From an uncultured Chloroflexia bacterium (GTDB lineage Bacteria; Chloroflexota; Limnocylindria; Limnocylindrales; CSP1-4): a stretch of DNA of 64,000 nucleotides. Positions 50,612-64,000 of the stretch are shown one piece after another. A model generated the notes under the pieces. It saw nothing but the letters and a program-made list of their open reading frames with translations. It was not told where the DNA came from and did not search any database. Numbering within the stretch: position 1 is the stretch's first letter; the number at the start of each line of letters is the position of its first letter. A program made the translations under genes and the position numbers. The DNA lies in contig CAWGCS010000001.1 in the NCBI GenBank assembly GCA_963821235.1, positions 46,804 through 110,803 of the forward strand, read 5' to 3'.

Positions 50612-53600
50612 TCAGCCGGACCGCCGCGTACCGGCGCAGCCGAGCTGGCGGACCCCGTCCGGCCGGTCCGGCCCGCCGACGCGACGCGCCTCGTCCACGA
50701 GCGGCCGCACGTCCCGGGCGACGACGTTCACCACGCTGGACTCGCGCTGCAGGATCCCGTCGACGACGAGGAGGGCGTTCCGCCGGACGACCCCGCGGAG
50801 GCGGGCCCAGGCGTCCGGCCAGAGCGTGACGTTGACCATCCCGGTCTCGTCCTCGAGGGCCAGGAAGACCGCGCCCTTCGCCGTCATCGGGTGCTGCCGC
50901 GTGACGACGAGCCCACCCAGGCGGACCGGCCCTGGCCGCCGCTCGGCGAGGGCGGCGCTCGGCACGGCCCCCAGCGCCTCGAGGGCCGGCCTGAAGAGGG
51001 CGACCACATGGCGCCGCGCATCGAGCGAGAGGATCGCGTAGGCGTCGCCGAGCCGCTCGAGCTCGGACAGCGGCGGGAGGTCTGGCGCGGGCGACGCCGG
51101 CAGGCGCAGGTCGATCGGCCGCCCCGCCACCCGTCCCCCGCCCCGCGGGGCTCCCCGGGCCGGCCTGGCCGTCTCCCGGAGCTGCCAGAGGAGCTCGCGT
51201 CGCGGCCGCTCCAGGGAGTCGAGCGCACCGGCCCGGATCATCCGGTCCAGGACCACCTCGGGAAGCCCCGTCCGCTCCACGACGTCGGCGAGGGACGTGT
51301 ACCGGCCGCGCGCCCGCTCCGCGTCGAGGTGGGCGGCATGCTCCTCGCCGATTCCCTTCACGAGGTGGAGCCCGAGCCGGACGCCCCAGCCGACGGCGCT
51401 CTCCGCGGCCCACCGCCCGCGCGCATCGTAGGAGGGAATGACGCAGGCGGGCGAGCGGACCGGGCGGGGCCGGGCGGCGATCCCCAGGTCGGGCGGGAGG
51501 GGCTCGCCGGGATCAAGATCGCGGCGGCCGCCGTCGCCCGCCGGCCCCGCCAGCGCCCAGCCGGGCCGGCCGGCCCACTCGGTCGTCGTCCGGTACGACG
51601 AGGCGTTGACATCGACCGCGAGGACGGCCACCCCGTGTCGCTTCGCGTCGTTGACCAGGACCTCCACCGGGTAGAAGCCCATCGGCTGGGCGTTGACGAG
51701 GCCGACGAGGAACTGGGCCGGGTAGAAGAGCTTGAGGAACGACGATTCGTAGGCGGTGCGGGCGAACGCCGCCGCGTGGCTCTTGGCGAAGCCGAAGCTG
51801 GCGAACCCGGCGACCTGCCGGTAGAGCTCCTCCCCGTCGTCGCGGGGCATCCCCTGGCCGGCGACGCAGCCGTCGACGAACCGGGCGTGGAGCTTCTCCA
51901 TCTCGGCCGGCGAGCGCCACGTCCCCATGGCCCGGCGGAACCCGTCGGATTCTCCCGGGCTGAAGCCGGCGACCTCGATCGCGATCCGCATCACCTGCTC
52001 CTGGTAGAGGATCACCCCGAGCGAATCGCGGAGGACCGGCTCCAGCGAGGGGTGGAGGTAGGCGACCGGCTCGAGCCCCTGCTTGCGGCGCAGGTAGGGG
52101 TGGACCGCGTTCCCCTGGATGGGGCCGGGGCGGATGATCGCCACCTCCACGACGAGGTCGTCGAGGCAGGCCGGCCGCGACTTGGGGAGGGTCTGCATCT
52201 GGGCCCGGCTCTCGACCTGGAAGACGCCCACGGTGTCGGCGGCCTGGAGCATGCCGAAGACCTCGGGGATCTCCTCGGGGAGCCGGTCGAGGTCGACGCA
52301 GGTCCCGCAGTCGTGCTCGATGAGCTGGATGGTCTCGTCGATCGCGGCCAGCATCCCCAGCCCGAGCAGGTCGAGCTTGATCAGCTTGAGGGTCTCGACG
52401 TCGCGCTTGTCGAACTGGACGACGACCCGGCCGGGCATCGTCGCCCGCTCCAGCGGGGCGATGTCGACGAGCGGGGCGGCCGTCACGAGCATCCCGCCGG
52501 TGTGGATGGAGAGGTGCCGGGGGAACCCGTCGATCCGGGCACAGAGCTCGAGCCAGCGTTCCCAGGGAGACATCCCGACCGTGCTCCCGCCGCGCGGGGC
52601 AGGCGGAGGCTCGGGGATGATCCGGGCCACCGACGAGGCTCGCCCGCCGGCCGGGCCCGGGAATGGGTCGAAGTGGCGCGGCCGGCCGAGTCGGTCGACG
52701 CTCCGCGTGGGCGGCGCGAGGACGCCCGACTCCGGGTCGATCCGCCGCCCGTCGATCGTGCCGGGCGGTCCGCTGGGAGCCCGCGGCGGGCCGGCCCCGG
52801 GACCGAAGGCGGGCATCGCCTCCCGGATCGGCCGGGCGACGATTGCCGGGGAGGCGGCCGCCGCGGCCGGCGGGCCGCCGCGGACGAGCCAGGCCACGCT
52901 CGCCGGGGAGTCCCCCGGCCCGCCCTTGTCGTCGGAGGTCCCGCCGGCACGGATCGCCGGGCTCGAGCCCGTCCCCGGCAGGATCCCGGTCCGGCGCGCG
53001 GCGTCCTCGGGGCCTGTCAGGCGACCGCGCGCGTGGTCGAGCCGGCCCATCCGGTCCACGAGGCCACGGTCGCCGGCCCGGGCGGCGGAGGCGTCGCCGT
53101 CGCGGGGCTCGTCGGGGCGGTGGAAGAACTCGGCGAAGCCGCCGTCCGCCTCGAGGTCGCGCCTGACCATCACCGAGTCGTAGGTCTCGAGCGCCTTCGC
53201 CACGCGATCGACGAGCGGACGCGGGAAGCCGAGGGCGTAGCCGACCTCGCGGACCGCGCTCCGAGCCCGGTAGGTCACGAGGTTGCAGACCATCCCGGTG
53301 TGCTCGGTCCCGTACCGCTCGTAGACGTACTGGATGACCTCCTCGCGGCGCTCGGAGCTGAAGTCGATGTCGACGTCCGGGTACGTCGTGCGGCCCTCGT
53401 TGATGAACCGCTCGAAGAGGAGGTTGTGGCGGATCGGGTCGACCCGGGTGATCCCCAGCACGTAGGCGACGATCGAATCCGCGGCGCTGCCGCGCCCCTG
53501 GGCGGGGATGCGGCGCTCCTTGGCGAAGCGCATGAGGTCCCAGCAGATGAGGAAGAACTCGGCCAGCCCGGTTCGCTCGATCACGTCGAGCTCGTGGGCG

Positions 53601-54817
53601 AGCTGCTTCACGACCGGCGGCGTCACCGGGTGGTAGCGCCGGCGCACCCCTCCGTGGCAGAGCTCGGCGAGGTACGAGAACGGCGTCTCGCCCGCGGGCA
53701 CCGGGAAGCCCGGGAAGCGGTAGTGCTCGAAGCCGAGGTCGACGCGGCAGGCAGCGGCCAGCTCGCCGGCGTTGGCGAGACCCTCCCGCCAGGCGGCGGC
53801 CGTCGCGGGGTCCGCCGCCTCGTCCCCCGGCGGCAGCGCCGCCAGCTCGGCACCCGACTTCAGGTAGTGCTCCCCGCTCGGGGTCCGCAGCTCGGCGAGC
53901 GTCTCCACCGTCCGCCCGTGCCGGATCGCCGTGAGGACGTCGTGGAGCTCGCGGTCCTCGGGGCGGGCGTAGCGGACGTCGTTGGCCACCACGACCGGCA
54001 GGCCGACCTCCCGGGCGAGCCGGGCGGTCTCCGCGACGAGCCAGTCGTCGCCCGGGAGCAGGTGGTGGGACAGCTCGAGGACGAAGCCCGCGCCGGCGAT
54101 CCCGCGGGCGGCCGGGCGGGCCGCTCCGTCGCGCGGGTCGAAGAGCCGGGCGTACCCTTCCGCGACCGCGCGGGCGCCCTCGCGATCGCCGGCGAGCAGC
54201 CGCCGGGCCAGCTCGCCGTGCCGGCACCCGGAGAGCGCGACGAGGCCCTCCGCATGATCGGCGAGGAGCGCCTGGGTGACCCGTGGCGCCGCCTTCGTGC
54301 CGGCGAGGTTCGCCCGCGAGATGAGGCGACAGAGGCTCCGATACCCGACGTCAGCCCGCGCCAGCAGGACGAGGTGCGGCCCGCGCTCCCCCGTCCCGAC
54401 GCCCCGATGGTCCTCCCTGACCGGCTCGCGATGGCCGGGGAGGCGGGCCCGCGCCGGCTGCGGTCGGGCCGGGAGCCCGCCCCGCGGGACCGCCTCGGCC
54501 GTCCCGACGGATCCCGACGCCCCGGCCGCCTGCCGCATCCGGGCCGGCCTGCGCCGCGCCGGGATCACGAGCCCATGGGGATCCGGGGCGAACGGATCGG
54601 CCAGCTCGACCTCGACGCCGATCACCGGGTGAAGACCGGCCTCCTCGGCGGCGGTGGCGAAGCGGACGACGCCGTAGAGCCCCTGCCGGTCAGTGACCGC
54701 GAGCGCGGGGAGGCCAAGCTCCAGGGCCCGCCCCACGAGGTCGGCCGCGCCGGAGGCCCCCTCGAGGAAGGAGAAGCTCGTGTGAGCGTGGAGCTCGGCA
54801 TAGGGCAGCACGGGCAT
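50612..54817 (-). CDS. dnaE2: error-prone DNA polymerase DnaE2 (ImuC), with three low-complexity insertions
   Basis: N-terminal PHP motif YAELHAHTSFSFLEGAS, the DnaE2-type signature rather than DnaE1. Pol III alpha palm/fingers motifs (LSIHTGGMLV, GLLKLDLLGLGML). 1401 aa. Start at MPVLPY (54817); the first 48 codons of the listed ORF are discarded. Confidence 0.85.
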   Translation of the reverse strand: MPVLPYAELHAHTSFSFLEGASGAADLVGRALELGLPALAVTDRQGLYGVVRFATAAEEAGLHPVIGVEVELADPFAPDPHGLVIPARRRPARMRQAAGASGSVGTAEAVPRGGLPARPQPARARLPGHREPVREDHRGVGTGERGPHLVLLARADVGYRSLCRLISRANLAGTKAAPRVTQALLADHAEGLVALSGCRHGELARRLLAGDREGARAVAEGYARLFDPRDGAARPAARGIAGAGFVLELSHHLLPGDDWLVAETARLAREVGLPVVVANDVRYARPEDRELHDVLTAIRHGRTVETLAELRTPSGEHYLKSGAELAALPPGDEAADPATAAAWREGLANAGELAAACRVDLGFEHYRFPGFPVPAGETPFSYLAELCHGGVRRRYHPVTPPVVKQLAHELDVIERTGLAEFFLICWDLMRFAKERRIPAQGRGSAADSIVAYVLGITRVDPIRHNLLFERFINEGRTTYPDVDIDFSSERREEVIQYVYERYGTEHTGMVCNLVTYRARSAVREVGYALGFPRPLVDRVAKALETYDSVMVRRDLEADGGFAEFFHRPDEPRDGDASAARAGDRGLVDRMGRLDHARGRLTGPEDAARRTGILPGTGSSPAIRAGGTSDDKGGPGDSPASVAWLVRGGPPAAAAASPAIVARPIREAMPAFGPGAGPPRAPSGPPGTIDGRRIDPESGVLAPPTRSVDRLGRPRHFDPFPGPAGGRASSVARIIPEPPPAPRGGSTVGMSPWERWLELCARIDGFPRHLSIHTGGMLVTAAPLVDIAPLERATMPGRVVVQFDKRDVETLKLIKLDLLGLGMLAAIDETIQLIEHDCGTCVDLDRLPEEIPEVFGMLQAADTVGVFQVESRAQMQTLPKSRPACLDDLVVEVAIIRPGPIQGNAVHPYLRRKQGLEPVAYLHPSLEPVLRDSLGVILYQEQVMRIAIEVAGFSPGESDGFRRAMGTWRSPAEMEKLHARFVDGCVAGQGMPRDDGEELYRQVAGFASFGFAKSHAAAFARTAYESSFLKLFYPAQFLVGLVNAQPMGFYPVEVLVNDAKRHGVAVLAVDVNASSYRTTTEWAGRPGWALAGPAGDGGRRDLDPGEPLPPDLGIAARPRPVRSPACVIPSYDARGRWAAESAVGWGVRLGLHLVKGIGEEHAAHLDAERARGRYTSLADVVERTGLPEVVLDRMIRAGALDSLERPRRELLWQLRETARPARGAPRGGGRVAGRPIDLRLPASPAPDLPPLSELERLGDAYAILSLDARRHVVALFRPALEALGAVPSAALAERRPGPVRLGGLVVTRQHPMTAKGAVFLALEDETGMVNVTLWPDAWARLRGVVRRNALLVVDGILQRESSVVNVVARDVRPLVDEARRVGGPDRPDGVRQLGCAGTRRSG

Positions 54818-54885
54818 GGGACCACCCCGGGAGCGGCGGAAGGACGGCGGCGCGGCCGTCGCGGCGGCGGGGCAGGGATCAAGAT

Positions 54886-54900
54886 AGAACAGACGTTCGA
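54886..54900. promoter_or_regulatory. LexA/SOS-box-like motif AGAAC-AGAC-GTTCGA, about 70 bp upstream of dnaE2
   Basis: Matches the actinobacterial SOS box TCGAAC-N4-GTTCGA with one mismatch. The extended motif ATAGAAC-N4-GTTCGAT is shared with the site upstream of imuA. Confidence 0.5.
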
Positions 54901-54970
54901 TCAGGTCAAGCCCCAGCGCGCCTCCGATGGGGCGCAACAAAACCCGCCTTCGACGCGTCACAGGTGGACC

Positions 54971-55096
54971 ATGAGCGCGCTCGCGAGGGGCAGCCGGTCT
55001 CTCCTCCCGACGCTCCTCCTCGTCGCCCTCGTGAGCGCGCTCGTGCTCGTCGTCCTCCCGGCGGTCCTCGTGGCCGCCGGCGGGACGGCCAGCTAG
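54971..55096 (+). CDS. hypothetical 41-aa single-TM peptide
   Basis: MSALARGSRSLLPTLLLVALVSALVLVVLPAVLVAAGGTAS*, the tail end of listed ORF 50891..55096. Speculative. Confidence 0.25.
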   Translation: MSALARGSRSLLPTLLLVALVSALVLVVLPAVLVAAGGTAS

Positions 55097-55208
55097 GCGA
55101 ACGATCCGCGCCGCTCCGGTTACTGGGGACCTGGGGCGGCGAATTCCTCCGGGCCCCGTTGCGCGCGTCGCGACGGGGCCCGCGAGATTCCCGCGCTACG
55201 ATGCGGCC

Positions 55209-55727
55209 ATGCGACGCCGCCGCGCCCCGCTGCTCCTCTCCGCCGCCACCGCCGTCCTGGCGATCGCGACCGCGGCCTGCGGGACCGCGCCGACGCCCAG
55301 CCCGGCGCCCACAACGGCCACCCCACCGGCGCCGACGAAGGTCCCCGGCGACGTCCGGACGCCGGGACCCGAGCCCGGCACGTTCACGACGGCCTGGGGA
55401 GCGGCCTGGGACGCGCTGCCGGCCGGCTTCCCCGTTCCCGCCGGCGCCGAGCCCGCCAGCCCCGGCGACCCGGCCGATGGACCCGTCTCCGGCGCCTTCG
55501 TGACGAACCGCGCTCCCGACGAGGTCACCACCCTCATGCAGAACGCCCTCGCCGCCGCGGGCTACAGTACGAACACGCTCAGCGGGCCGGCCGAGGACGG
55601 GAGCCTCGTGATCGACTCGGCGGGCGGCGGCGGGGATCCCGCCTGTCGGGTGCAGACCCGGGTTCGGCCCCTCGGCGGGACGACGATGATCACGGTGCTC
55701 TTCGCCGCCGCCTGCCCCTGGGGCTGA
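55209..55727 (+). CDS. putative secreted protein or lipoprotein
   Basis: MRRRRAPLLLSAATAVLAIATAACG signal with a Cys, then a PT-rich segment and a ~110-aa domain. Confidence 0.5.
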   Translation: MRRRRAPLLLSAATAVLAIATAACGTAPTPSPAPTTATPPAPTKVPGDVRTPGPEPGTFTTAWGAAWDALPAGFPVPAGAEPASPGDPADGPVSGAFVTNRAPDEVTTLMQNALAAAGYSTNTLSGPAEDGSLVIDSAGGGGDPACRVQTRVRPLGGTTMITVLFAAACPWG

Positions 55728-55756
55728 CCGGCAAGGGAGACGGAGGAGGAACGACG

Positions 55757-55891
55757 ATGGGACCCACGCCGCGCGAATGGCTGGGGGCCGGCCTCCTCGC
55801 GATCGTCCTCGTGACCCTGCTCGTCGTGCTCGTCGCGCTCGGCTGGTCCGGCCGGGAGGCGGCCGAGGCCGCGGTCGCCGCCATCGCCTAG
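55757..55891 (+). CDS. hypothetical 44-aa single-TM peptide
   Basis: MGPTPREWLGAGLLAIVLVTLLVVLVALGWSGREAAEAAVAAIA*. Strong SD GGAGGAGG 8 nt upstream. Not in the ORF track (too short). Confidence 0.3.
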   Translation: MGPTPREWLGAGLLAIVLVTLLVVLVALGWSGREAAEAAVAAIA

Positions 55892-56469
55892 CGGCCGGCG
55901 ACGGGGCCGGGCGGGCGCAGCGCAGCCGCCAGGACCGCCACGCCGTAGCGGAAGGCTCCCTCGACGTCGCCCCCCAGGCCGAACCCCTCGGCCAGCTCCA
56001 TGCTCGTGAAGCCATGCACGTACGCCGTGAAGAGGCGAGCGGCGTCGAGCGCCCGGGCCGGACCCACCAGCCGCGTGCAGGCGTCGAGGACCGGGCCGAT
56101 CGCCACCGCCCCGAGCTCGGTCGGGGGTCGATCCGCGGCCGGGAACGCGCCGAAGAGGTGACGATAGGCATTCGGCGACCGGTGGGCCCAGGCCCGGAAG
56201 GCCAGCGCCATCGCCCGCAGGCCCTCGGCCGGGTCGCCCGGCTCGCCGGCGGCCGCGAGGACCGCCCCGACCTCGACCATCGCGTCCTCGGCAACGGCCC
56301 GCAGGAGGGCTGCCCTGCTCGGCACATGCTTGTAGAGCGAGGGAGCCCGGACGCCGACGGCCGCGGCCACGGCCTGCATCGTGACCTTCTCCGGGCCGCC
56401 GGACTCGAGGAGTGCGCGCGCTGCCGCCACGATCTCGCCGTCGGTGGTGCGGGCGGGGGCGGGGCTCAT
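55888..56469 (-). CDS. TetR/AcrR-family transcriptional regulator
   Basis: N-terminal HTH (VTMQAVAAAVGVRAPSLYKHV) plus a ligand-binding domain. 193 aa. Confidence 0.8.
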   Translation of the reverse strand: MSPAPARTTDGEIVAAARALLESGGPEKVTMQAVAAAVGVRAPSLYKHVPSRAALLRAVAEDAMVEVGAVLAAAGEPGDPAEGLRAMALAFRAWAHRSPNAYRHLFGAFPAADRPPTELGAVAIGPVLDACTRLVGPARALDAARLFTAYVHGFTSMELAEGFGLGGDVEGAFRYGVAVLAAALRPPGPVAGR

Positions 56470-56480
56470 GCCGAGAGTAT

Positions 56481-56532
56481 AGGCTATTGACAGTAGCCTT
56501 GGGATGCCCGATGATGGCTACGAACAGTAGCC
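56481..56532. promoter_or_regulatory. two tandem operator-like inverted repeats GGCTA-N7-TAGCC (aGGCTAttgacagTAGCCt and tGGCTAcgaacagTAGCCt) in the tetR / MBL divergent intergenic region
   Basis: Read from the sequence. The centres are 34 bp apart. The first repeat contains a TTGACA -35-like hexamer and the second overlaps the MBL start codon. This is the lowest-GC stretch of the locus. Confidence 0.45.
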
Positions 56533-57326
56533 TATCGGCGCGGCGCATCGCGGCCGCAGGCCGGCACCAGGGAGAATCGGTGGAGATCGCACCCGGCATC
56601 CGGAGGCTCGGCGAGGGCCTCATCAACGTCTACCTGCTCGAGGAGGCGGGCGAGATCACGGTCGTCGACGCCGGCCTGCCCGGCCACTGGAAGGAGCTCG
56701 GGACCGAGCTGGCGGCGATGGGCCGGACGCTCGACGACGTCCGCGCCCTCATCCTCACCCACGCCCACTCGGACCACGTCGGCTTCGCCGAGCGGATCCG
56801 CCGCGAGGGCGCGGTCCCGGTCAGCGTCCACGTCGACGATGCCGCGCTCGCCCGCGGCGAGGTCAAGCAGGTCCGCGACGAGCACGGGCCCGGGTACGCC
56901 GGCTGGAGCATCCGGGCCCTGCTGGGGTTCGCCGTCTTCGGCCTCACCCACGGCGGGATGAAGGTGACGCCGATCGCCGAGGTCGCCACCTTCGCCGACG
57001 GGGCCACGCTCGACGTGCCCGGCGCCCCGCACGTCGTCCATGTGCCCGGGCACACGGCCGGCAGCGTCGCCCTCCACCTCCCGGGTCGCGACGCCATCCT
57101 CGTCGGCGACGCCTTCGCCACGCGGAACGTGGTCACCGGCCGTCGCGGGCCCCACTTCGCGACGGCGTTCAACGCCGACAACCGGCTCGCCGCGGCATCG
57201 CTGGCGCGCCTCGACGGGCTCGCCGCGCAGCTCGTCCTGCCGGGCCACGGCGACGCCTGGCGGGGTGGGCTGGAGGAGGCCGTGCGCCTCGTCCGGGACA
57301 GCGTCCCGCCCAGCCTGCGGGCGTGA
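56511..57326 (+). CDS. MBL-fold metallo-hydrolase
   Basis: THAHSDHVG (HxHxDH) motif with downstream His/Asp ligands. Start at MMATNS. Confidence 0.8.
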   Translation: MMATNSSLSARRIAAAGRHQGESVEIAPGIRRLGEGLINVYLLEEAGEITVVDAGLPGHWKELGTELAAMGRTLDDVRALILTHAHSDHVGFAERIRREGAVPVSVHVDDAALARGEVKQVRDEHGPGYAGWSIRALLGFAVFGLTHGGMKVTPIAEVATFADGATLDVPGAPHVVHVPGHTAGSVALHLPGRDAILVGDAFATRNVVTGRRGPHFATAFNADNRLAAASLARLDGLAAQLVLPGHGDAWRGGLEEAVRLVRDSVPPSLRA

Positions 57327-57721
57327 CCAGGCGCGAGCGCATGGCGAACCACCCGCTCAACCTCGCGCTGCGCTTCGTCCTCGAGCTGGCCGCGCTCGCC
57401 GGGCTGGCGATGCTCGGCTGGGCGCTCGGCGGCGAGGGCTGGCGGCTGCTGCCGGCCATCGCGGTCCCGTTCGCCGCCGCCGCCGCCTGGGGCACGTTCC
57501 GGATCCCCAACGACCCTGGGCGGGCGCCGGTCCCGGTCTATGGCCCCGTCCGCCTGGCTCTCGAGGCCGCGGTCTTCGCGGGCGGGGTCGCCGGCTTCGC
57601 CGTGGCCGGCCAGGGGACGGTGGCGCTCCTCGTCGGGGCGGTGACGGGCCTCCACTACCTCGCATCGTATGACCGGCTGATCCGGCTCCTCCGCAACCTC
57701 GCGGTGGCGCCTCAGTCGTAG
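57323..57721 (+). CDS. small membrane protein (YrdB/DUF2568-like, 4 TM)
   Basis: 132 aa, hydrophobic. The GTG start overlaps the MBL stop (GTGA). The family assignment is tentative. Confidence 0.5.
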   Translation: MTRRERMANHPLNLALRFVLELAALAGLAMLGWALGGEGWRLLPAIAVPFAAAAAWGTFRIPNDPGRAPVPVYGPVRLALEAAVFAGGVAGFAVAGQGTVALLVGAVTGLHYLASYDRLIRLLRNLAVAPQS

Positions 57722-57960
57722 AGGCGCTCCAGGTGCCAGGTGCCGTCGACCCGGTCGAGGTAGACGAGGGCGAGCCAGCGGGCGCCGACGACCTTGAAGT
57801 AGTCGCGGGCGATCGGGCGACCCCACCAGGCATCCTCGACCCGCCAGCGGGTGCAGACCTCGACGGGCTCCCGGCGGTCGGCCCAGGCGATCGCGACGAC
57901 GCGGCCGGCCGCGTCGACCTCCACCTCGACGGGCGGGTGCTCCCGCAGGAGGCGGGTCAC
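57712..57960 (-). CDS. small conserved protein (82 aa) translationally coupled to imuB
   Basis: MTRLLREHPPVEVEVD...TRWRVEDAWWGRPIARDYFKVVGARWLALVYLDRVDGTWHLERLYD. Its GTG start overlaps the imuB TGA stop (GTGA). It is Trp-rich and not low-complexity, so it looks like a real fold. Confidence 0.55.
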   Translation of the reverse strand: MTRLLREHPPVEVEVDAAGRVVAIAWADRREPVEVCTRWRVEDAWWGRPIARDYFKVVGARWLALVYLDRVDGTWHLERLYD

Positions 57961-59273
57961 GGAGCGGCCCGTGCGCCGGCCGCGAGCCCGGTTGCGGCAC
58001 CCCCGTCGGCGGTCACCGGGTGCCAGCTCCAGCGCGTCTCGGGAAGGAGCGCCTCCGGGTCACCGAGCGTCACCCGTCCCACCCGGCCCTCGCCGAAGCG
58101 CACGGCGAGCCGGGCGAGCTGCCAGCCGAGCCGGGCGGCGGCGTTGGCCTGGGGCGCGAAGAGGGCGAGCTGGTGGCCGGCGGCCGCGACGATGTCGAGG
58201 AGCTCGAGCTCCAGGCGGGCGACCGGCGCCGTCGGCGGCTCCCGCTCCAGGCGCTCGAGGAGGAGCCGCTCGATCGCCTCGGGGTCGGCGGTCGGCTCCG
58301 GGAGGCGTTGCGTCACGACCACCGTGGGGAGATCCGCTCCCGGGAGCGGCAGGTGGCGCGGGGAGAACGTGGGGTCCAGGGTGGCGGTCAGCCGGGCGCG
58401 GCCGGCGGCCTCGCCCCGGGCGTCGAGCTGGGCGGCGAGCGCGCCGGCCAGGCGCCGCAGGACGAAGCGGAGCGCGTCGAGGCCGGCGACGGGCTCGTCG
58501 AGGGCGAGCCCGAGCGTCAGCCGCTCGGGAGCCCGGCGGGGGCGGAAGGGGTCGGTCTCCAGGCCGCTCGCCCGGGCGTGGAGGCGGCCTCCCTCCTCGA
58601 TCCCGAAGCGGGCGACGAGGGCCGAGCGCGGCAGCGCGGCGACCGAGCCGATCGTGGCCAGCCCGAACCGGGCGAGCCGGCCGCGGACCTCGGGGTCGCG
58701 GGAGAGGGCCGAGGCCGGGAACGGGGCGAGGAAGGCCGCGTCGTCTCCCGATCGGACGAGGATCGCCGGCACCGACCTGGGTCCGGGGCCGGTGGCCGCG
58801 GCGAGGGCGGCCGCGAAGCGCGTCCCGGCGATCCCCGCCCGCGCCGTCCCGGGCAGGAGCGGGGCGAGGGCCGCCCGGACCTTGCCGACGAGGACCGGCT
58901 CGGACCCCCAGAGCGCCTCGAGGCCGTCGACCTGGACCTCGAGCGATCCGAAGGCCCGGTCGGCCGGGTCCGTCGCGCCGGCGACCCCCGGGCTGAACGC
59001 CGCCAGGGCGTCGAGCGCCGCCTCCACGGCCGCGGCGTCAGCGGCCGGGTCGGGCGGGACGAAGGCCGCCTCCGGGACCAGCCGGTGCGCCTGCCCGAGG
59101 GGGATCCCCCGGCGAACCCCGAGGGCGAGCGCGGCCGGGCTGGCGTCGAGGACGGCGCCGTCATCCCACGGCCGCCCGCCGAGGATCAGCGGGCCGGCGG
59201 CGGGGATCCCGGGATCGCGCATGCGTGCGAGCCGGAGGGCGAGGTGGGGCCAGGCGAGGTGGAGGAGGCGCAT
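57957..59273 (-). CDS. imuB: ImuB-like catalytically inactive Y-family DNA polymerase
   Basis: The N-terminus MRLLHLAWPHLALRL follows the ImuB pattern (Y-family fold without the DxD catalytic acids). 438 aa. Lies downstream of imuA. Confidence 0.75.
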   Translation of the reverse strand: MRLLHLAWPHLALRLARMRDPGIPAAGPLILGGRPWDDGAVLDASPAALALGVRRGIPLGQAHRLVPEAAFVPPDPAADAAAVEAALDALAAFSPGVAGATDPADRAFGSLEVQVDGLEALWGSEPVLVGKVRAALAPLLPGTARAGIAGTRFAAALAAATGPGPRSVPAILVRSGDDAAFLAPFPASALSRDPEVRGRLARFGLATIGSVAALPRSALVARFGIEEGGRLHARASGLETDPFRPRRAPERLTLGLALDEPVAGLDALRFVLRRLAGALAAQLDARGEAAGRARLTATLDPTFSPRHLPLPGADLPTVVVTQRLPEPTADPEAIERLLLERLEREPPTAPVARLELELLDIVAAAGHQLALFAPQANAAARLGWQLARLAVRFGEGRVGRVTLGDPEALLPETRWSWHPVTADGGAATGLAAGARAAP

Positions 59274-60306
59274 CGATCGATCCCTGGTGCTCCGACGGGG
59301 TGGATGGGACGGCAGGAGCGGCGGCGGGAGCGGTCCTCGCGACGGCTTCGACGAGGAGGTCGTCGCGGGCGAGGCAGCGATCGTGCGGCCCGCCCTCCGC
59401 GTAGAGGAGACGGAGGGCCACCCGCCGGCCCGGCGCCCCGTGGCGGTCCTTCACGACACGGACCTCCGTCCGCTGGCCCACGACCTCCCGTCCGAGGCGG
59501 ATCCAGTCGCGGCGCCGCAGCTCGAGCCGGAGGCCGGCGCCCTCCTCGAGGGCGGCCCGGAGCCCGGTGGCCGTTCCGGCCGGCTCGAGGACGAGGAGGA
59601 GCGCCCCGGCCCGCCGGGCGAACGCGACGAGCCGCGCGAGCTGGTCGGCCGGGCGAGGGCGGCGGCGTCCCCGGGGGTCGCCACGAGGCCCGGTCGCGGT
59701 CGCGTCCGAGGCAGGCCGGTCCCGCGCTCCGGCGAGGTCGAGGACGAGGACGTCGACGGCCCTGCCCTGGAGGAGCGCTCCGGCCATCCCGAGGGCTTCG
59801 TCGGCCGACCCGGGGACGAGGACGGCAAGCCACTCCAGCCGGACGCCCCGGGCGACCGCCTCCACGGGATCGAGGGTCCGGGGGAGGTCGACCCAGGCCA
59901 CGAGGGCGCCGCGGGCCTGGGCCTCCGCGACCGCCCGGAGGGCGAGGGTCGTCGTCCCGCTCGACCCCGCGCCCCGGAGGGCCACGGTGGCTGCCCGCGG
60001 CAGGCCGCCGGTCGCAAGCAGCGCGTCGAGCTCCGGGAAGCCGGTGGGGATCGCCCGGTCCGCGTCCAGCGCCGGGGCGGCGGGCGGCAGGCGGAGGCGG
60101 TCGGCGCCGCCGGGCAGCGGGACGAGGGACGGGCGTGCCGGGTCGGGCGGCACGGGGGCCGGGAGCGCGGTGACCGCCCCGGCCTCCGCCGGGAGCGGGA
60201 CGGTCGCGAGCGCCCCGAAGACCTCCGTCGCCGGCCGCGGCGCAGCCGCTCCCCAGCGGGCCCGGAGGCCCGCGAGGACGGCGGTGCGGTCGGGGTGGCG
60301 GTCCAT
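59161..60306 (-). CDS. imuA: ImuA (RecA/SulA-like) cell-division-inhibitor-family protein of the mutasome cassette
   Basis: GFPELDALLATGGLPRAATVALRGAGSSGTTTLAL...VLDL has P-loop RecA/SulA-like features. Start at MDRHPD (60306). A low-complexity C-terminal tail overlaps the imuB 5' end by about 113 nt. Confidence 0.7.
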   Translation of the reverse strand: MDRHPDRTAVLAGLRARWGAAAPRPATEVFGALATVPLPAEAGAVTALPAPVPPDPARPSLVPLPGGADRLRLPPAAPALDADRAIPTGFPELDALLATGGLPRAATVALRGAGSSGTTTLALRAVAEAQARGALVAWVDLPRTLDPVEAVARGVRLEWLAVLVPGSADEALGMAGALLQGRAVDVLVLDLAGARDRPASDATATGPRGDPRGRRRPRPADQLARLVAFARRAGALLLVLEPAGTATGLRAALEEGAGLRLELRRRDWIRLGREVVGQRTEVRVVKDRHGAPGRRVALRLLYAEGGPHDRCLARDDLLVEAVARTAPAAAPAVPSTPSEHQGSIDAPPPPRLAPPRPPARTHARSRDPRRRPADPRRAAVG

Positions 60307-60321
60307 CGGATGCTCAACAAT

Positions 60322-60336
60322 AGAACATCCGTTCGA
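60322..60336. promoter_or_regulatory. LexA/SOS-box-like motif AGAAC-ATCC-GTTCGA immediately upstream of imuA
   Basis: Same extended motif ATAGAAC-N4-GTTCGAT as upstream of dnaE2. It sits in a locally AT-richer stretch. Confidence 0.5.
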
Positions 60337-60433
60337 TGATTGGAAGAGGCTTGTGGACCAGGATTCGACGGCGACAGGCCCCCGGGCGTCGACCCCGGAC
60401 CGCCCAGATCGCTCCGCCGCGGGCGTCGTTCCC

Positions 60434-61324
60434 CTACCCCAGGGCGATGAGGAAGACACTCGCCAGCACGAGCCCGAGACCCAGCCACTGCACGGCCCGC
60501 GGTCGCTCGCCGAAGAGCAGCACCCCGGCCGCGACCGCGATCACCGGCCCGAACGAGCTCGTGATGCCGATCAGCCACGTCTGCGAGATCTCGAGGCCGA
60601 CCGCGAAGACGATGAAGCCCCCGATGTCGAGCAGGCCCGCCGCCACGACGAGGCCGATCGCCCGGCGGTCGATCGACCGTCCTGCCGCCGACGCCGGATC
60701 GGCCGGCCGCACGAGCCTCGAGGCGCCGAGGATGAGCCAGACCGTCCCCGCGTTCGCGATCCGGGCCAGGAGGAGGACCGGCAGCCAGCCCGCCGAGCGA
60801 ACCGGGCCCGACATGACCACGGTCAGCGCGGCGAACGCCATGAGCGCCACGAGCGCGAAGGCGATGCCCTGCCCTACGGGCCGAGCCCGGCGCAGGCCCC
60901 GGTCGAACGTCACCGAGGCGAGGACCACGCCGCCCGTCGCGGTCGCGACGCCGACCACCTGGCCCGCCGCGAGCGACTCCCCGAGCAGGAGCACGGACAG
61001 CACGACCGTCAGCCCGCCGTAGGTCGAGACCACGGGGCTGACGACCGTGATCGGGCCGTGGCGGAGCGCGGTGAAGAACGCCAGGTAGGCCACCGCGGCC
61101 ACCACCCCGCACGCCAGCGCGGTGACGACGGTGCCCGCATCGCCCAGCAGGGTGGCCCTCGTGCCGAGGAGCAGGATCGCGAGCACCGCGACCGAGGTCA
61201 GCTGGGTCCCGGCCGTTGCCCGGAGGCTCCCGACGCGCCGGCTCGCCACGGTGGCGACGGTGTCGGTGAGGCCCCACGCGACGGCCGCGCAGAGACCGAG
61301 GAGGAGGCCGGCAGGATCGTGCAT
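60434..61324 (-). CDS. DMT-superfamily (EamA-like) transporter
   Basis: 296 aa with 10 TM and two EamA repeats. Confidence 0.7.
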   Translation of the reverse strand: MHDPAGLLLGLCAAVAWGLTDTVATVASRRVGSLRATAGTQLTSVAVLAILLLGTRATLLGDAGTVVTALACGVVAAVAYLAFFTALRHGPITVVSPVVSTYGGLTVVLSVLLLGESLAAGQVVGVATATGGVVLASVTFDRGLRRARPVGQGIAFALVALMAFAALTVVMSGPVRSAGWLPVLLLARIANAGTVWLILGASRLVRPADPASAAGRSIDRRAIGLVVAAGLLDIGGFIVFAVGLEISQTWLIGITSSFGPVIAVAAGVLLFGERPRAVQWLGLGLVLASVFLIALG

Positions 61325-61446
61325 CGCCCGAGCGTACGGGTCGGCCGGGGCGTCCGCCCGCCCGGCGCGCCTCCCGGGACGGGCTGGTCCCCGTGCTACA
61401 CTTCCGGCCGGCGATCCCGCCCCAGCGCGCGGGATGCGCCTCGCGT

Positions 61447-61522
61447 GGGGATGTAGCTCAGCTGGGAGAGCACCGCGTTCGCATCGCGGGGGTCAGGGGT
61501 TCGAGTCCCCTCATCTCCACCA
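61447..61522 (+). tRNA. tRNA-Ala (anticodon CGC), 3' CCA encoded
   Basis: Manual cloverleaf fold. Acceptor GGGGATG/CATCTCC with the Ala identity pair G3:U70. D-arm GCTC/GAGC. Anticodon stem CCGCG/CGCGG with loop TTCGCAT. T-arm AGGGG/CCCCT with loop TTCGAGT. Confidence 0.9.
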
Positions 61523-61673
61523 CTTGCTGGTCGATGCCATTCAGGTTGGCCGCTGCGTTCCGTCCCCGAGCCACGGGGAGCCGGGGCAGCCCGAACGTCG
61601 TCGCCGTCCCGGGCGCGGCGTCACCCCCGGGAGGGGGCCCGGGGGGACGCATTCGACCGGTGACGGGATCGGC

Positions 61674-62156
61674 CTAGTCGTCCGAGCCAACGCTGGCGGC
61701 GCTCGCCGCGCTGTCGACGCTGGCCACGGTGGCGACGCTGTCGACGCTGGCCACGGTGTCGACGCTGGCGGCGCTGGCCACGGTGGCGACGCTGGCCACG
61801 GTGGCGACGCTGGCGGCGCTCGCCGCACTGTCGACGCTGGCGACGCTGTGGACGGAGGTCGCGGTGGCCTTCGAGGTGGCCTTCGGGGTGGCCGAGGGCT
61901 CCTCCTGGACCACCGGCTGCGCGACGACCCGGGCCAGGTCCGGCGACGCGGGGTCGACGGAGTGCGCGGGGGCCTTCGTCGCCCGGGCCGCGACCAGGAG
62001 CACGGGGTCGGCAGCCGCTTCGGCCCGGCCTTCCCTGACCTCGATGGTCTGCACGGCGCGATCCAGGCTGGACGCCGAGGCGAACGAGAAGCCCCCGACG
62101 GTCAGGCCTGCCACCAAGCCGGCCGCTCCGGCGACTTTCCAGTTGAGCTGCTTCAC
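61674..62156 (-). CDS. secreted or membrane-anchored protein with a Ser/Val/Ala-rich tandem-repeat tail (paralog A)
   Basis: MKQLNWKVAGAAGLVAGLTVGGFSFASA signal/anchor, then a conserved ~45-aa block and (SVATVA)n repeats. GTG start with GGAGA SD. The N-terminal ~50 aa are paralogous to the gene at 62432..62875. Confidence 0.6.
   Translation of the reverse strand: MKQLNWKVAGAAGLVAGLTVGGFSFASASSLDRAVQTIEVREGRAEAAADPVLLVAARATKAPAHSVDPASPDLARVVAQPVVQEEPSATPKATSKATATSVHSVASVDSAASAASVATVASVATVASAASVDTVASVDSVATVASVDSAASAASVGSDD
61690..61855. repeat. imperfect ~18-bp tandem DNA repeat (GACGCTGGCCACGGTGGC-like), in-frame within paralog A
   Basis: Read from the sequence. It encodes the SVATVA repeat. 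Confidence 0.6.
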
Positions 62157-62431
62157 GGTGATCTCCTCTGCTGTTCGTTCGGTCTGTCAACGGGGGGCGC
62201 GACCAGATTGGCTCCATCGTCGCGGCGGCCCCTGATGACCTGGTGAGGCGATCGTGAGAACCCTCTCAGCCATACGGGCGGCCCGGCCGGCACCCGGACC
62301 CGCCCTCCAACAGCGAGTCGACCGCGACGGCCACGCGGAGCGGGCCGTCCGGATATCGAGCTGCAGCGGGCAGAGCACCGCCCCCGGGTGGGGCTCCCGA
62401 GGGCGGCGTAATCGAAGGCGGGACGGCGTGA

Positions 62432-62875
62432 TCAGTCCTCCGGGTCGTCGGGGTCGTCAGCGTCGTCGGGGTCGTCAGCGTCGTCGGGGTCGTCAGCGTC
62501 GTCGGGGTCGTCAGCGTCGTCGGGGTCGTCGTCGGAGGCGAGGACGGTCCTCGGGGTGGGCCCGGGGGTGGGTCGCGGGGTGGCTTTCGGCCGCTCCGCC
62601 ACGACCGGCGGCGCGACCACGGCGGGTGTGCTGGGCGGCGCAGGCCCGAGGGAGGGGGTCGGGGAGGCCGGAACGCCGCCGTTGTGCGCTGGCGTTGTGG
62701 GGCCGTCGACGACCAGAAGCTCGGGCCTAGGGGTCTCCGCCGCCTGACTCTCCTGGAGCTCGATGGCCTCCACGGCAAGGTCTCCACCGGACCGCGAGAC
62801 CATCGAGAGCCCGCTGATCGTCAGCCCGATGACCAGGCCGAGGGCCCCGGTGATCTTCCAGTCTGGAGGCTTCAT
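62432..62875 (-). CDS. secreted or membrane-anchored protein with an acidic DDPDDA tandem-repeat tail (paralog B)
   Basis: MKPPDWKITGALGLVIGLTISGLSMVS signal/anchor, a conserved block, a PT-rich linker and (DDPDDA)5. ATG with AGGGAG SD. The 5' UTR and start context (GATCACC-ATG/GTG-AAGC) are shared with paralog A. Confidence 0.6.
   Translation of the reverse strand: MKPPDWKITGALGLVIGLTISGLSMVSRSGGDLAVEAIELQESQAAETPRPELLVVDGPTTPAHNGGVPASPTPSLGPAPPSTPAVVAPPVVAERPKATPRPTPGPTPRTVLASDDDPDDADDPDDADDPDDADDPDDADDPDDPED
62443..62532. repeat. five near-perfect copies of an 18-bp tandem repeat (CGTCGTCGGGGTCGTCAG), in-frame within paralog B
   Basis: Read from the sequence. It encodes DDPDDA. Confidence 0.65.
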
Positions 62876-62930
62876 GGTGATCGCTCCCTGGCGGTTCGCT
62901 CGCCCTTCTGCTCGGATCGGAGGCCCGGTG

Positions 62931-63875
62931 TCACGGAGGTGCCGGCGAGACCCCTCTAGCTGCCGCCAGCGTCGCCCACGTCTCGGCCAACGCAATCCGT
63001 CGGCGGACCTGGCGTCGCCAGGCCGGCGCCTGGACACGGAACGGGCCCGTCGCCAGCCCAACGAGGGTCGCGGCCGTCGCGCGCCGGAGCTCGGCCGGTT
63101 CGACTGCGCGATCGAACGCGGGCTGGAGACGACAGCGCCAGCGGTCGATCGCGGCCCGCCGGCGAGGAACGGCGTCGCCGAGGGCCACGAGATGGCCGAG
63201 CATGGTCGCCAGGTCGTGGACGCGCCGGCCGGGACCGGCGCCGTCGACATCGAGCATGCCGATCACTCGGCTCCCCTCGACGAGCAGCTGCGCCTCGTGC
63301 AGATCGCCGTGGGTCGTCACGACGGGACCCGTGCCCGCCGGCCCGCCGAGCCGACCGAGCAGCGCCTCGAGACGCTCCTGCTCACCTGGCATGACGGCCG
63401 CGAGCAGCCCGGCGTGGGCGGCAGCACGTCCCAGCGGGCCATGGGAGACGGACTCGGTCGACCCGATCGCTGGGGCCGGCAGGCGGTCGAGGAGGTCGAC
63501 GAGCGCGTCGCCATCCGGAAGCCGATCGACGGCTGCGTCGTCGCCGCTGAGCAGCACGTCGCGGGCCGTCCGTCCGTCCAGCGCGGCAAGGACGACGATG
63601 CCGTCGTCCGGCCACGTGGCGACCACCTCGGGCACCGGGACATGCCCGTCGAGCGCGGCCAGCCGGTCGAGGAGACCTCCCAGCTCGTCGGGAGGCACGA
63701 CCTTGAGGTACCGCTCGAATCCTGCGGCACCCTGGCCACGCTCACCGACACGGACCCGGACGACCGCGCGGCGCCCGGGTCGGTAGGACCGGACGTCGAG
63801 CGTCACCGCCCGGCCAGGAACGCCCAGGCGTGCCGCCACCGCCGGGGCGGAGACCGCCACTCGAAGACCAGGCAA
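62931..63875 (-). CDS. aminoglycoside/choline-kinase-like phosphotransferase (APH family)
   Basis: HGDLHEAQLL catalytic loop plus a D-x-x ... metal-binding region. The TTG start at 63875 is tentative; the true start may differ. Confidence 0.65.
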   Translation of the reverse strand: MPGLRVAVSAPAVAARLGVPGRAVTLDVRSYRPGRRAVVRVRVGERGQGAAGFERYLKVVPPDELGGLLDRLAALDGHVPVPEVVATWPDDGIVVLAALDGRTARDVLLSGDDAAVDRLPDGDALVDLLDRLPAPAIGSTESVSHGPLGRAAAHAGLLAAVMPGEQERLEALLGRLGGPAGTGPVVTTHGDLHEAQLLVEGSRVIGMLDVDGAGPGRRVHDLATMLGHLVALGDAVPRRRAAIDRWRCRLQPAFDRAVEPAELRRATAATLVGLATGPFRVQAPAWRRQVRRRIALAETWATLAAARGVSPAPP

Positions 63876-64000
63876 GGACGAGTCTGCCGGGTAGCGGAGG
63901 ATCCCGACGGTCAGGTCGTCGGCGCTGACGACCAGGGTCCCCGCCGGCGGTCCGTCGATGTCGACGATCGCGACGAGCGACTCCGGGATCGCCGGGCCGC

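Follow-up and report, generated by a model that had tools for sequence, protein, structure and literature searches.

Small exported proteins that end in in-frame repeat tails are a known general kind, of which the staphylococcal SD-repeat proteins (ClfA/B, SdrC-G) are an example: their serine-aspartate stretch serves as a wall-spanning stalk and is glycosylated. Direct repeats are also found in operators of the PhoB/OmpR type, and the actinobacterial PHO box consists of direct repeat units of 11 nt with the core GTTCACC. Here we describe a locus with likenesses to both, from an uncultured Chloroflexia bacterium (GenBank assembly GCA_963821235.1, contig CAWGCS010000001.1, positions 46,804 to 110,803; this whole analysed stretch of 64,000 nucleotides is called the window). 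It carries two neighbouring minus-strand genes, named A and B, whose products form an unannotated family of small proteins with repeat tails. We propose, with roughly even confidence, that A and B belong to a conserved, probably regulator-controlled envelope module with disordered extracytoplasmic tails.

A and B are real genes, and are taken as such because GC is higher at the first than at the second codon position, because differences between orthologues are in excess at third positions, and because the start codon and Shine-Dalgarno sequence are conserved. GC at the three codon positions (GC1/GC2/GC3) is 0.70/0.60/0.94 in A (GC3 0.944) and 0.77/0.55/0.87 in B (GC3 0.865), compared with 0.74/0.54/0.95 in the neighbouring EamA transporter gene, values that are typical of such a genome (74.5% GC). 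Within the first 45 codons of the A-type genes, 1233 differences between orthologues fall at the third position versus 813 and 491 at the others, and an alignment of leaders shows that the start codon of A and its Shine-Dalgarno sequence are kept across orthologues. The two genes are paralogous, as a sequence-only reading of the window, made without database searches, had claimed: BLASTP finds 35 identities across the first 73 residues (48%, E 2e-16), so that the conserved block of that reading is present, while its estimate of ~45 amino acids was too short. The shared 5' start context that it had pointed out is likewise read directly from the sequence, namely GGAG-ATCACC-GTG-AAGC for A (Shine-Dalgarno at 62163-62166) and GGGAG-CGATCACC-ATG-AAGC for B.

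Both proteins are built from the same parts in the same order: a positive N-terminus, a hydrophobic helix, a conserved motif, a proline-rich linker and the repeat tail. The N-terminus reads MKQLNWK in A (charge +2), followed by VAGAAGLVAGLTVGGFSFA, and MKPPDWK in B (charge +1), followed by ITGALGLVIGLTISGLSMV, while the helix, at residues 8-26, reaches 19-residue Kyte-Doolittle maxima of 1.65 and 1.91, respectively. Both proteins thus have the positive n-region and the h-region of ~15-20 residues of a Sec signal peptide or signal anchor, as the sequence-only reading had supposed. In the family alignment, M1, W6, G13, G17 and E39 are invariant. The helix of A is rich in Gly and Ala and displays a G13xxxG17xxxG21 pattern; across the family, G13xxxG17 is invariant and accompanied by G21/G22 (S21 in B), with G10 and G22 near-invariant. 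The motif that follows the helix reads ..AVQTIEVRE in A and ..AVEAIELQE in B (TIEVRE/AIELQE), with the invariant E39, and a second motif lies in the linker, VVAQPVV in A and AVVAPPVVAERP in B; the linker of A also contains PKAT repeats and that of B contains AVVAPPVVAERPKATP. The proteins end in SVGSDD (A) and DDPED (B).

Two further observations concern these parts. A shorter class of in-frame repeats, of 12 bp, is present in both linkers (61859-61893 and 62552-62583), encoding a KATS/PKAT-type stretch in A and a GPTP/RPTP-type proline-rich stretch in B, and this zone has expanded independently in orthologues, for example as 48 bp x 3 in L016. In addition, most A-type orthologues carry, directly before the SVA repeats, a cysteine cluster with ferredoxin-like spacing, DDCxxCxxCxxx(xx)C (L007:3264-3719; the A-type genes of L010-L012, L015, L016, L019 and L021; P0004 and P0005), and some B-type orthologues carry DDCADDDC; A and B of the window contain no Cys.

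In both proteins, the flank N-terminal to the helix is more positive than the C-terminal one, which is neutral or negative, and it is for this reason that a topology with the N-terminus inside and the tail outside is favoured. Residues A26-S-A28|S29 of A (ASA|SS) fit the -3/-1 rule, the orthologues having V-S-A|S, whereas V-S-R|S in B (VSR|SG) does not satisfy it; because of this difference, A may be cleaved and released at ASA|SS, and B may more likely be kept as a signal anchor. The AlphaFold2 model of A, computed from an 11-sequence alignment, contains a helix at residues 7-20 and no fold beyond it, with a mean predicted local distance difference test (pLDDT) of 45, which is consistent with A and B being intrinsically disordered beyond the hydrophobic helix.

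The tails of A and B are encoded by in-frame repeats, as shown by the codon layout, and Tandem Repeats Finder (TRF) places both arrays, at 61690-61869 and 62442-62531, where the sequence-only reading had seen them (Table 1). That both are perfect tandem repeats holds for B only: the array of A is degenerate, its matches amounting to 76-77% for a period of 18 and to 80-82% for one of 45, and exact copies of GTCGCCACCGTGGCCAGC number three, two of them adjacent. In frame, the tail of A consists of ten V[AD][ST][VA][AD][ST]-type hexapeptides and that of B comprises DPDDAD four times without change and DPDDPE once. Nor are the tails strictly of opposite character, since that of A is weakly acidic (net charge -6; 30% Ala, 27% Ser, 23% Val, 10% Asp; ending in SDD), whereas that of B, residues 101-147, is strongly so (net charge -21; 47% Asp, 21% Pro).

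Neither protein matches a characterised family. No match was obtained in Pfam, NCBIfam, PADLOC or PHROGs, and a profile search of the PDB returned a chance match only (E 0.84). A word-indexed search of 5.8 billion proteins gave six relatives of A (P0001-P0006) and three of B (P0007-P0009), besides one low-complexity false match, and a HMMER scan of 1.84 billion representatives, with a profile built from the non-repeat part of the proteins, gave 21 clusters only, all with the same architecture. Scanning one genome per GTDB species yielded 12 loci, all from Nanopore metagenome-assembled genomes (MAGs) titled 'uncultured Chloroflexia bacterium', which come from the Microflora Danica project (PMC12313526). 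The family was thus found only in soil metagenomes and in these 12 MAGs. Identity to relatives is 45-68% for A and ~80% for the gene upstream of B, which encodes a kinase of the APH fold; the exact A and B sequences of the window are absent from a 15-billion-protein collection. Literature searches yielded no description of an equivalent, nor of the leader of A or of a constant association of such genes with a two-component system and an atypical APH-fold kinase.

Comparison between species shows that the arrays turn over while their general nature persists. In TRF, the tail of each species has its own near-perfect 9-, 18- or 27-bp array, as has the linker in many cases: L015 carries (SVA)x~17 and (DPE)x12.6, L021 (EEPEET)n and L011 (DSANSV)x4, and the linker of L016 contains a 48-bp unit three times. 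Tail composition is kept between species, while unit, copy number and sequence differ. Unit-sized differences also separate near-identical proteins, P0016 (160 amino acids) being six residues longer than P0004 (154 amino acids) and P0007 and P0017 differing by three. From these comparisons of sequences, the tails are best described as in-frame minisatellites that evolve by slippage under selection on composition, and not as an on/off contingency switch.

The genes A and B stand at the end of a conserved series. Wherever the contig reaches, the upstream genes are, in order, a HAMP/HisKA histidine kinase (HK), an OmpR-type response regulator (RR), a PF01636 protein of ~409 amino acids (the APH-fold kinase) and then the small gene or genes. 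The full order HK-RR-APH-B-A is seen in L002 and L005-L009, and at least APH-B-A in L003-L004 and L010-L021; L001 reads HK-RR-(extra 232-amino-acid open reading frame)-APH-A-A', with two A-type copies. In the core clade, the order B-type then A-type is constant, and the pair is conserved across the 12 species-level genomes. More distant loci have a single copy (L022-L024 and L026) or two copies, the first overlapping the stop codon of the APH-fold kinase gene (L025). The spacer between the latter gene and B is short in the window (Table 1) and measures 10-80 bp in related loci, the start overlapping the stop in L025, and no conserved element was found upstream of B in related loci; B is probably co-transcribed with the APH-fold kinase gene. 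The histidine kinase, of the HAMP type, has an outside domain of ~150 amino acids. The two-component system falls below the curated NCBIfam cutoff of every named subfamily, its best sub-cutoff matches being the heavy-metal CztS/R type and MtrAB, with PhoR/PhoB also below cutoff.

The APH-fold kinase gene is cut by the window end, and its first listed in-frame start, TTG at 63875, is internal relative to full-length orthologues. It scores 36.6 bits against PF01636 (cutoff 23.2), while no curated NCBIfam cutoff is reached and the PDB contains no sequence match. The AlphaFold2 model of an orthologue, P0037 (30-sequence alignment), has a pLDDT of 90.9, and Foldseek aligns it best with APH(3')-Ia, maltokinase and MTR kinase. 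Conservation extends to the catalytic Asp, the DVD motif and the Lys, and the catalytic loop reads HGDLHEAQ, in which an invariant Gln replaces the Mg-binding Asn of APH enzymes (HGDxxxxN); an extra N-terminal beta-rich domain of ~120 residues is also present. The subfamily has at least 390 members, including proteins from Acidimicrobiia MAGs and from cultured Blastococcus, and none is named beyond 'phosphotransferase'.

Five further lineages of this APH-fold kinase were examined, and all have a small downstream open reading frame whose N-terminus resembles a signal and whose tail is of low complexity, acidic or rich in Ser: (TPDDA)x6 in L027 (Blastococcus), (DSPE)x~20 in L031, DSP-rich tails in L032 and L033, and a Ser-rich low-complexity tail with SVAS motifs in L029 (Acidimicrobiia). 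A two-component system adjoins in four of the five, L031 having none adjacent. Pfam found nothing credible in the syntenic small proteins of other lineages. In two of these lineages, a further small open reading frame lies directly upstream of the histidine kinase gene (L027:7590-7895 and, in another Actinomycetota contig, L033:8365-8766, both on the minus strand), with a transmembrane (TM) helix, a proline-rich stretch containing PPIVVPER and a poly-Asp tail, an architecture like that of gene B with no significant alignment to it.

Upstream of A lies a conserved leader. In an alignment of 16 leaders, 41 columns are invariant, a degree of conservation well beyond that of the coding tails. The leader opens with the invariant CTGAGAGGGTTCTCAC (62254-62269), a 16-mer that each leader-bearing gene (A-type or distal-copy) has once and that is absent from the rest of the window and of the first 21 loci. 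At 62232-62257 on the minus strand, TCAC-N7-TCAC-N7-TCAG (TCACgatcgccTCACcaggtcaTCAG) forms three repeats spaced at 11 nt; they are followed by an invariant GAcGAT (about 62217-62222, its A and T falling on the key positions of a -10 element), a CCGGT..ACCGG-type hairpin and the GGAG of the Shine-Dalgarno sequence. A regular expression for the three repeats matches only leaders of A in 310 kb (window plus 21 loci); among the 16 aligned leaders, 14 have this pattern, while the third CAG is replaced by CAT in L009 and by CAC in L012; in distant loci the pattern is exact in L022, has the same spacing with ACG as third core in L025 and is degenerate in L026. The leader of A thus has what is expected of an OmpR/PhoB-type site, that is, at least two direct repeats with a 10-11-bp period in an upstream position. 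An RNA element was considered as well. Rfam gave the tRNA and chance-level matches only on 61300-63100, with nothing on the minus strand in 62157-62270; RNAalifold proposes 16 pairs, of which only two show a compensatory change, both from one clade; and the leader of the window folds no better than its shuffles (z +1.05). On these grounds, we prefer to read the leader as a promoter with a putative OmpR/PhoB-type direct-repeat operator, for which the adjacent regulator would be the obvious candidate.

Table 1. Features of the A/B locus, in positions of the window.
Feature	Position	Strand	Description	Basis
Gene A	61674-62156	minus	160 amino acids, GTG start	open reading frame list
Gene B	62432-62875	minus	147 amino acids, ATG start	open reading frame list
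A tail array	61690-61869	minus	degenerate 9/18/27/45-bp periodicity, 76-82% matches, ~ten hexapeptide units	TRF, codon layout
B tail array	about 62444-62530	minus	18 bp x 4.8 copies, 100% identical, coding-strand unit GACGACCCCGACGACGCT	TRF
A leader/promoter region	62157-62270	minus	conserved, ~110 nt, non-coding	alignment of 16 leaders
B upstream spacer	62876-62930	minus	55 bp, stop of APH-fold kinase gene to B start, GGGAG at 62884-62888	
APH-fold kinase gene, 3' part	62931-64000	minus	~409 amino acids full length in orthologues, cut by window end	Pfam, alignment
tRNA-Ala(CGC)	61447-61522	plus	convergent with gene A	

As regards the surroundings of the pair, a GC-rich inverted repeat without a T-tract, CCCCCGGG/CCCGGGGG, lies at 61624-61645 between the stop codon of A and the convergent tRNA-Ala gene and is possibly a bidirectional terminator hairpin; the same tRNA-Ala gene follows the pair in L007. 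Scans for consensus promoters and terminators found nothing. Just downstream of the EamA gene, Pfam reveals an SOS-mutasome-type cassette on the minus strand (50612-60459), made of a RecA-fold ImuA-like gene (59161-60459), an ImuB-like Y-family polymerase gene (57957-59273), an 82-amino-acid open reading frame (57712-57960) and, beyond an intervening TetR/metallo-beta-lactamase/DUF2568 group, a DnaE2-like gene for a polymerase III alpha subunit (50612-54961).

In the explanation that we propose, A and B would be tandem paralogous small Sec-targeted proteins, with the N-terminus inside and the tail outside, encoded by the terminal genes of a module that comprises the histidine kinase, the OmpR-family regulator, the atypical APH-fold kinase, B and A. 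B would be translated from the transcript of the APH-fold kinase gene, and A from its own promoter and leader, whose 11-nt-spaced repeats would be a site for an OmpR/PhoB-type regulator, most simply the adjacent one. The extracytoplasmic tails would be the working parts, that of B as a proline-punctuated polyanion and that of A as a chain with Ser or Thr at every third residue, and in the envelope they could form a charged hydrated brush or a cation-binding layer, or be partners of the ~150-residue outside sensor domain of the histidine kinase. In-frame replication slippage would drive their evolution, and selection would act on their composition and length class and not on their sequence.

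Several points weigh against this explanation. No characterised homologue supports any function of A or B, and the explanation does not account for what an APH-fold kinase in the cytoplasm would do next to proteins that are exported. The small proteins of Actinomycetota are not demonstrably homologous to A and B: BLASTP finds nothing, the family profile is not significant against the small protein of L031, the same holds for B of the window against the poly-Asp open reading frame of Blastococcus, and hhalign gives a probability of 5.8%; because no alignment is significant, it is synteny and architecture that link A and B to the small open reading frames of these lineages. Topology and cleavage were called by rules (charge, hydropathy and the -3/-1 positions) and not by a trained predictor. 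Finally, the three-repeat motif was found neither upstream of the HK-RR operon nor elsewhere in the 310 kb, so that the regulator is linked to the leader by proximity only, and the leader could still be an RNA element, one stem having compensatory changes in one clade. If the proposed explanation is true, a protein-based, regulator-controlled polyanion or hydrophilic brush would be added to the envelope biology of abundant uncultured soil bacteria, and the APH-fold kinase subfamily would gain its first functional handle; the analogous gene pair in cultured Blastococcus makes the question accessible to experiment. Should the module reading prove false, the tails would still illustrate neatly how disordered sequence evolves by slippage within limits set on its composition.

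A possible, if unlikely, alternative is that A and B are accessory sensors, that is, bitopic proteins retained in the membrane, whose helices, of the small-xxx-small type, would pack against one another or against the histidine kinase so as to adjust its signalling, with the tails as antennae for cations, pH or the state of the wall in the manner of MgrB or SafA with PhoQ, or of LiaF with LiaS. The helix is indeed the best-conserved part, its invariant (G13, G17) and near-invariant (G10, G22) glycines forming a GxxxGxxxG pattern, although it may stand out only because the disordered remainder is so little constrained. The constant link to a HAMP histidine kinase with its outside domain also speaks for such sensors, as do the additional TM, proline-rich, poly-Asp open reading frames directly upstream of the histidine kinase in Blastococcus and L033; however, no two-component system adjoins the genes for the APH-fold kinase and the small protein in L031, and the good AXA-type sites in A-type and many distant members (VSA|S, AAA|DD) suggest release from the membrane.

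It is decidedly doubtful that the tails are substrates of the APH-fold kinase, which would phosphorylate Ser/Thr in [VI]-D-S-[PVA] and S-V-A motifs, turning the tail of A into a tunable polyanion akin to phosphophoryn or casein, while B would be a constitutively acidic 'phosphomimetic'. This idea draws on the adjacency of APH-fold kinase and tail-protein genes in 8 of 8 lineages beyond the core clade, on the recurrence of Ser beside Asp or Pro in otherwise unrelated tails (DSPE, DSDSS, SVDS), on B-type tails that are often free of Ser/Thr and purely Asp/Glu/Pro, and on the conserved catalytic Asp, DVD motif and Lys. Nevertheless, this kinase has no signal sequence, while the charge distribution places the tails outside; the nearest structures are small-molecule kinases (for aminoglycosides, maltose, methylthioribose and choline) and not protein kinases; and we know of no precedent for the export of a pre-phosphorylated chain, which also counts against it. 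In its boldest form, which we regard as improbable, a module of an atypical APH-fold kinase (HGDxxxxQ) and exported Ser/Asp-rich repeat-tail proteins would extend over soil Actinomycetota-like and 'Chloroflexia'-labelled lineages, phosphate being loaded on [VI]DS[PV] and SVA motifs to give a phosphophoryn-like polyanion, with B as its Asp/Glu mimic.

The sequence-only reading had seen slippage-prone tails and, in them, a contingency-type surface locus, in which high-frequency slipped-strand changes would create surface heterogeneity or antigenic variation within a population. The first part stands in part: repeat units are gained and lost between species and between P0004 and P0016 or P0007 and P0017, whereas L002 and L009, 97.8% identical over 2.5 kb, show no indel in either tail. 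The second, which we hold to be quite improbable, could appeal to the perfect array of B, to the unit-sized differences between near-identical proteins and to a copy number and unit that differ in every species. Yet every repeat unit, whether from the window or from an orthologue, has a length divisible by three (9, 18, 27 or 45 bp), so that slippage alters length and not expression and frame switching is impossible; moreover, besides the indel-free tails of L002 and L009, 15 contigs carry the B-type protein P0008 in identical form, and the order and pairing of the genes and the composition of the tails have persisted over the deep divergence of the 12 species-level genomes. Frameshifted copies, which might be taken for phase variants, were seen only in Nanopore MAGs (B of L012, A and B of L013, B of L019, A and B of L020) and thus coincide with error-prone assemblies. 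In L020, 1-bp indels occur throughout the locus, the APH-fold kinase gene included, and in L013 likewise elsewhere in the locus, to a lesser degree; phase variation was therefore set aside, the frameshifts in the four loci being likely sequencing errors.

Very improbable is the possibility that A and B are precursors of ribosomally synthesized and post-translationally modified peptides, whose Ser/Thr/Cys-rich tails would be cores that are phosphorylated by the neighbouring APH-type kinase and then modified, in the way of class V lanthipeptides: an APH-family kinase does adjoin, and in 9 of 14 A-type orthologues the Cys motif DDCxxCxxCxxxC stands before the Ser repeats, but A of the window and all B tails contain no Cys, the N-terminus is a Sec-type hydrophobic signal and not a leader peptide, and the neighbourhood is that of a two-component system and not a biosynthetic cluster, its conserved members being only HK, RR and the APH-fold kinase, with no conserved lyase, cyclase, protease or exporter nearby. 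That A and B are mere artefacts of a high-GC genome, either as non-coding minisatellites or because the antisense open reading frame 61729-62235 (plus strand) is the coding one, has a close to negligible probability, for although that frame also has a GC3 of 0.94 and spurious long open reading frames are plentiful in the region, GC1 exceeds GC2 in the sense frames and falls below it in the antisense frame, the latter does not stay open across the repeats in L001, an orthologous locus, and start codon, Shine-Dalgarno sequence and the N-terminal 45 codons are conserved, with third-position excess, in a family of 21 protein clusters sharing one architecture.

Returning to the proposed envelope module, each of its parts resembles a described system in some respects and departs from it in others. 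The APH-fold kinase shares with the small-molecule kinases of PF01636, of the APH/eukaryotic-like kinase fold, the family match, the structural superposition, the HGD loop, the DVD motif and the Lys, and differs from APH enzymes by the Gln for Asn in HGDLHEAQ and by the N-terminal beta domain. The leader of A recalls PhoB/OmpR operators in its three 11-nt repeats with a TCAC core, one repeat in the L016 clade reading CGTTCACCGGG; unlike with pho boxes, the adjacent system scores below the PhoR/PhoB cutoff and no phosphate genes are linked, and the operator is a putative one. With MgrB/PhoQ, SafA/PhoQ and LiaF/LiaS, the locus has in common small single-helix proteins encoded beside or under a two-component system, with a conserved helix rich in small residues; those proteins have no long repeat tail, no APH-fold kinase partner and no homology to A or B, for which contact with the histidine kinase is hypothetical. 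The likeness to the simple-sequence contingency loci of Haemophilus and Neisseria lies in tandem repeats inside genes for exposed proteins, whereas here the unit is a multiple of three, no on/off switching follows, and the arrays show no indel between the 98%-identical L002 and L009. The staphylococcal SD-repeat proteins share with A and B an in-frame 18-bp repeat of variable copy number that encodes an acidic or Ser-rich stretch outside the membrane, a position that is predicted in the case of A and B. There is no sequence similarity between the two groups, and the hallmarks of SD-repeat proteins and other MSCRAMMs, an LPXTG sortase signal with its C-terminal anchor and an N-terminal globular ligand-binding domain, are absent from A and B, for which no globular domain is predicted and Pfam gives no match. 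In the A/B family, by contrast, proteins of 140-190 amino acids carry the signal or anchor at the N-terminus and the repeat at the extreme C-terminus.

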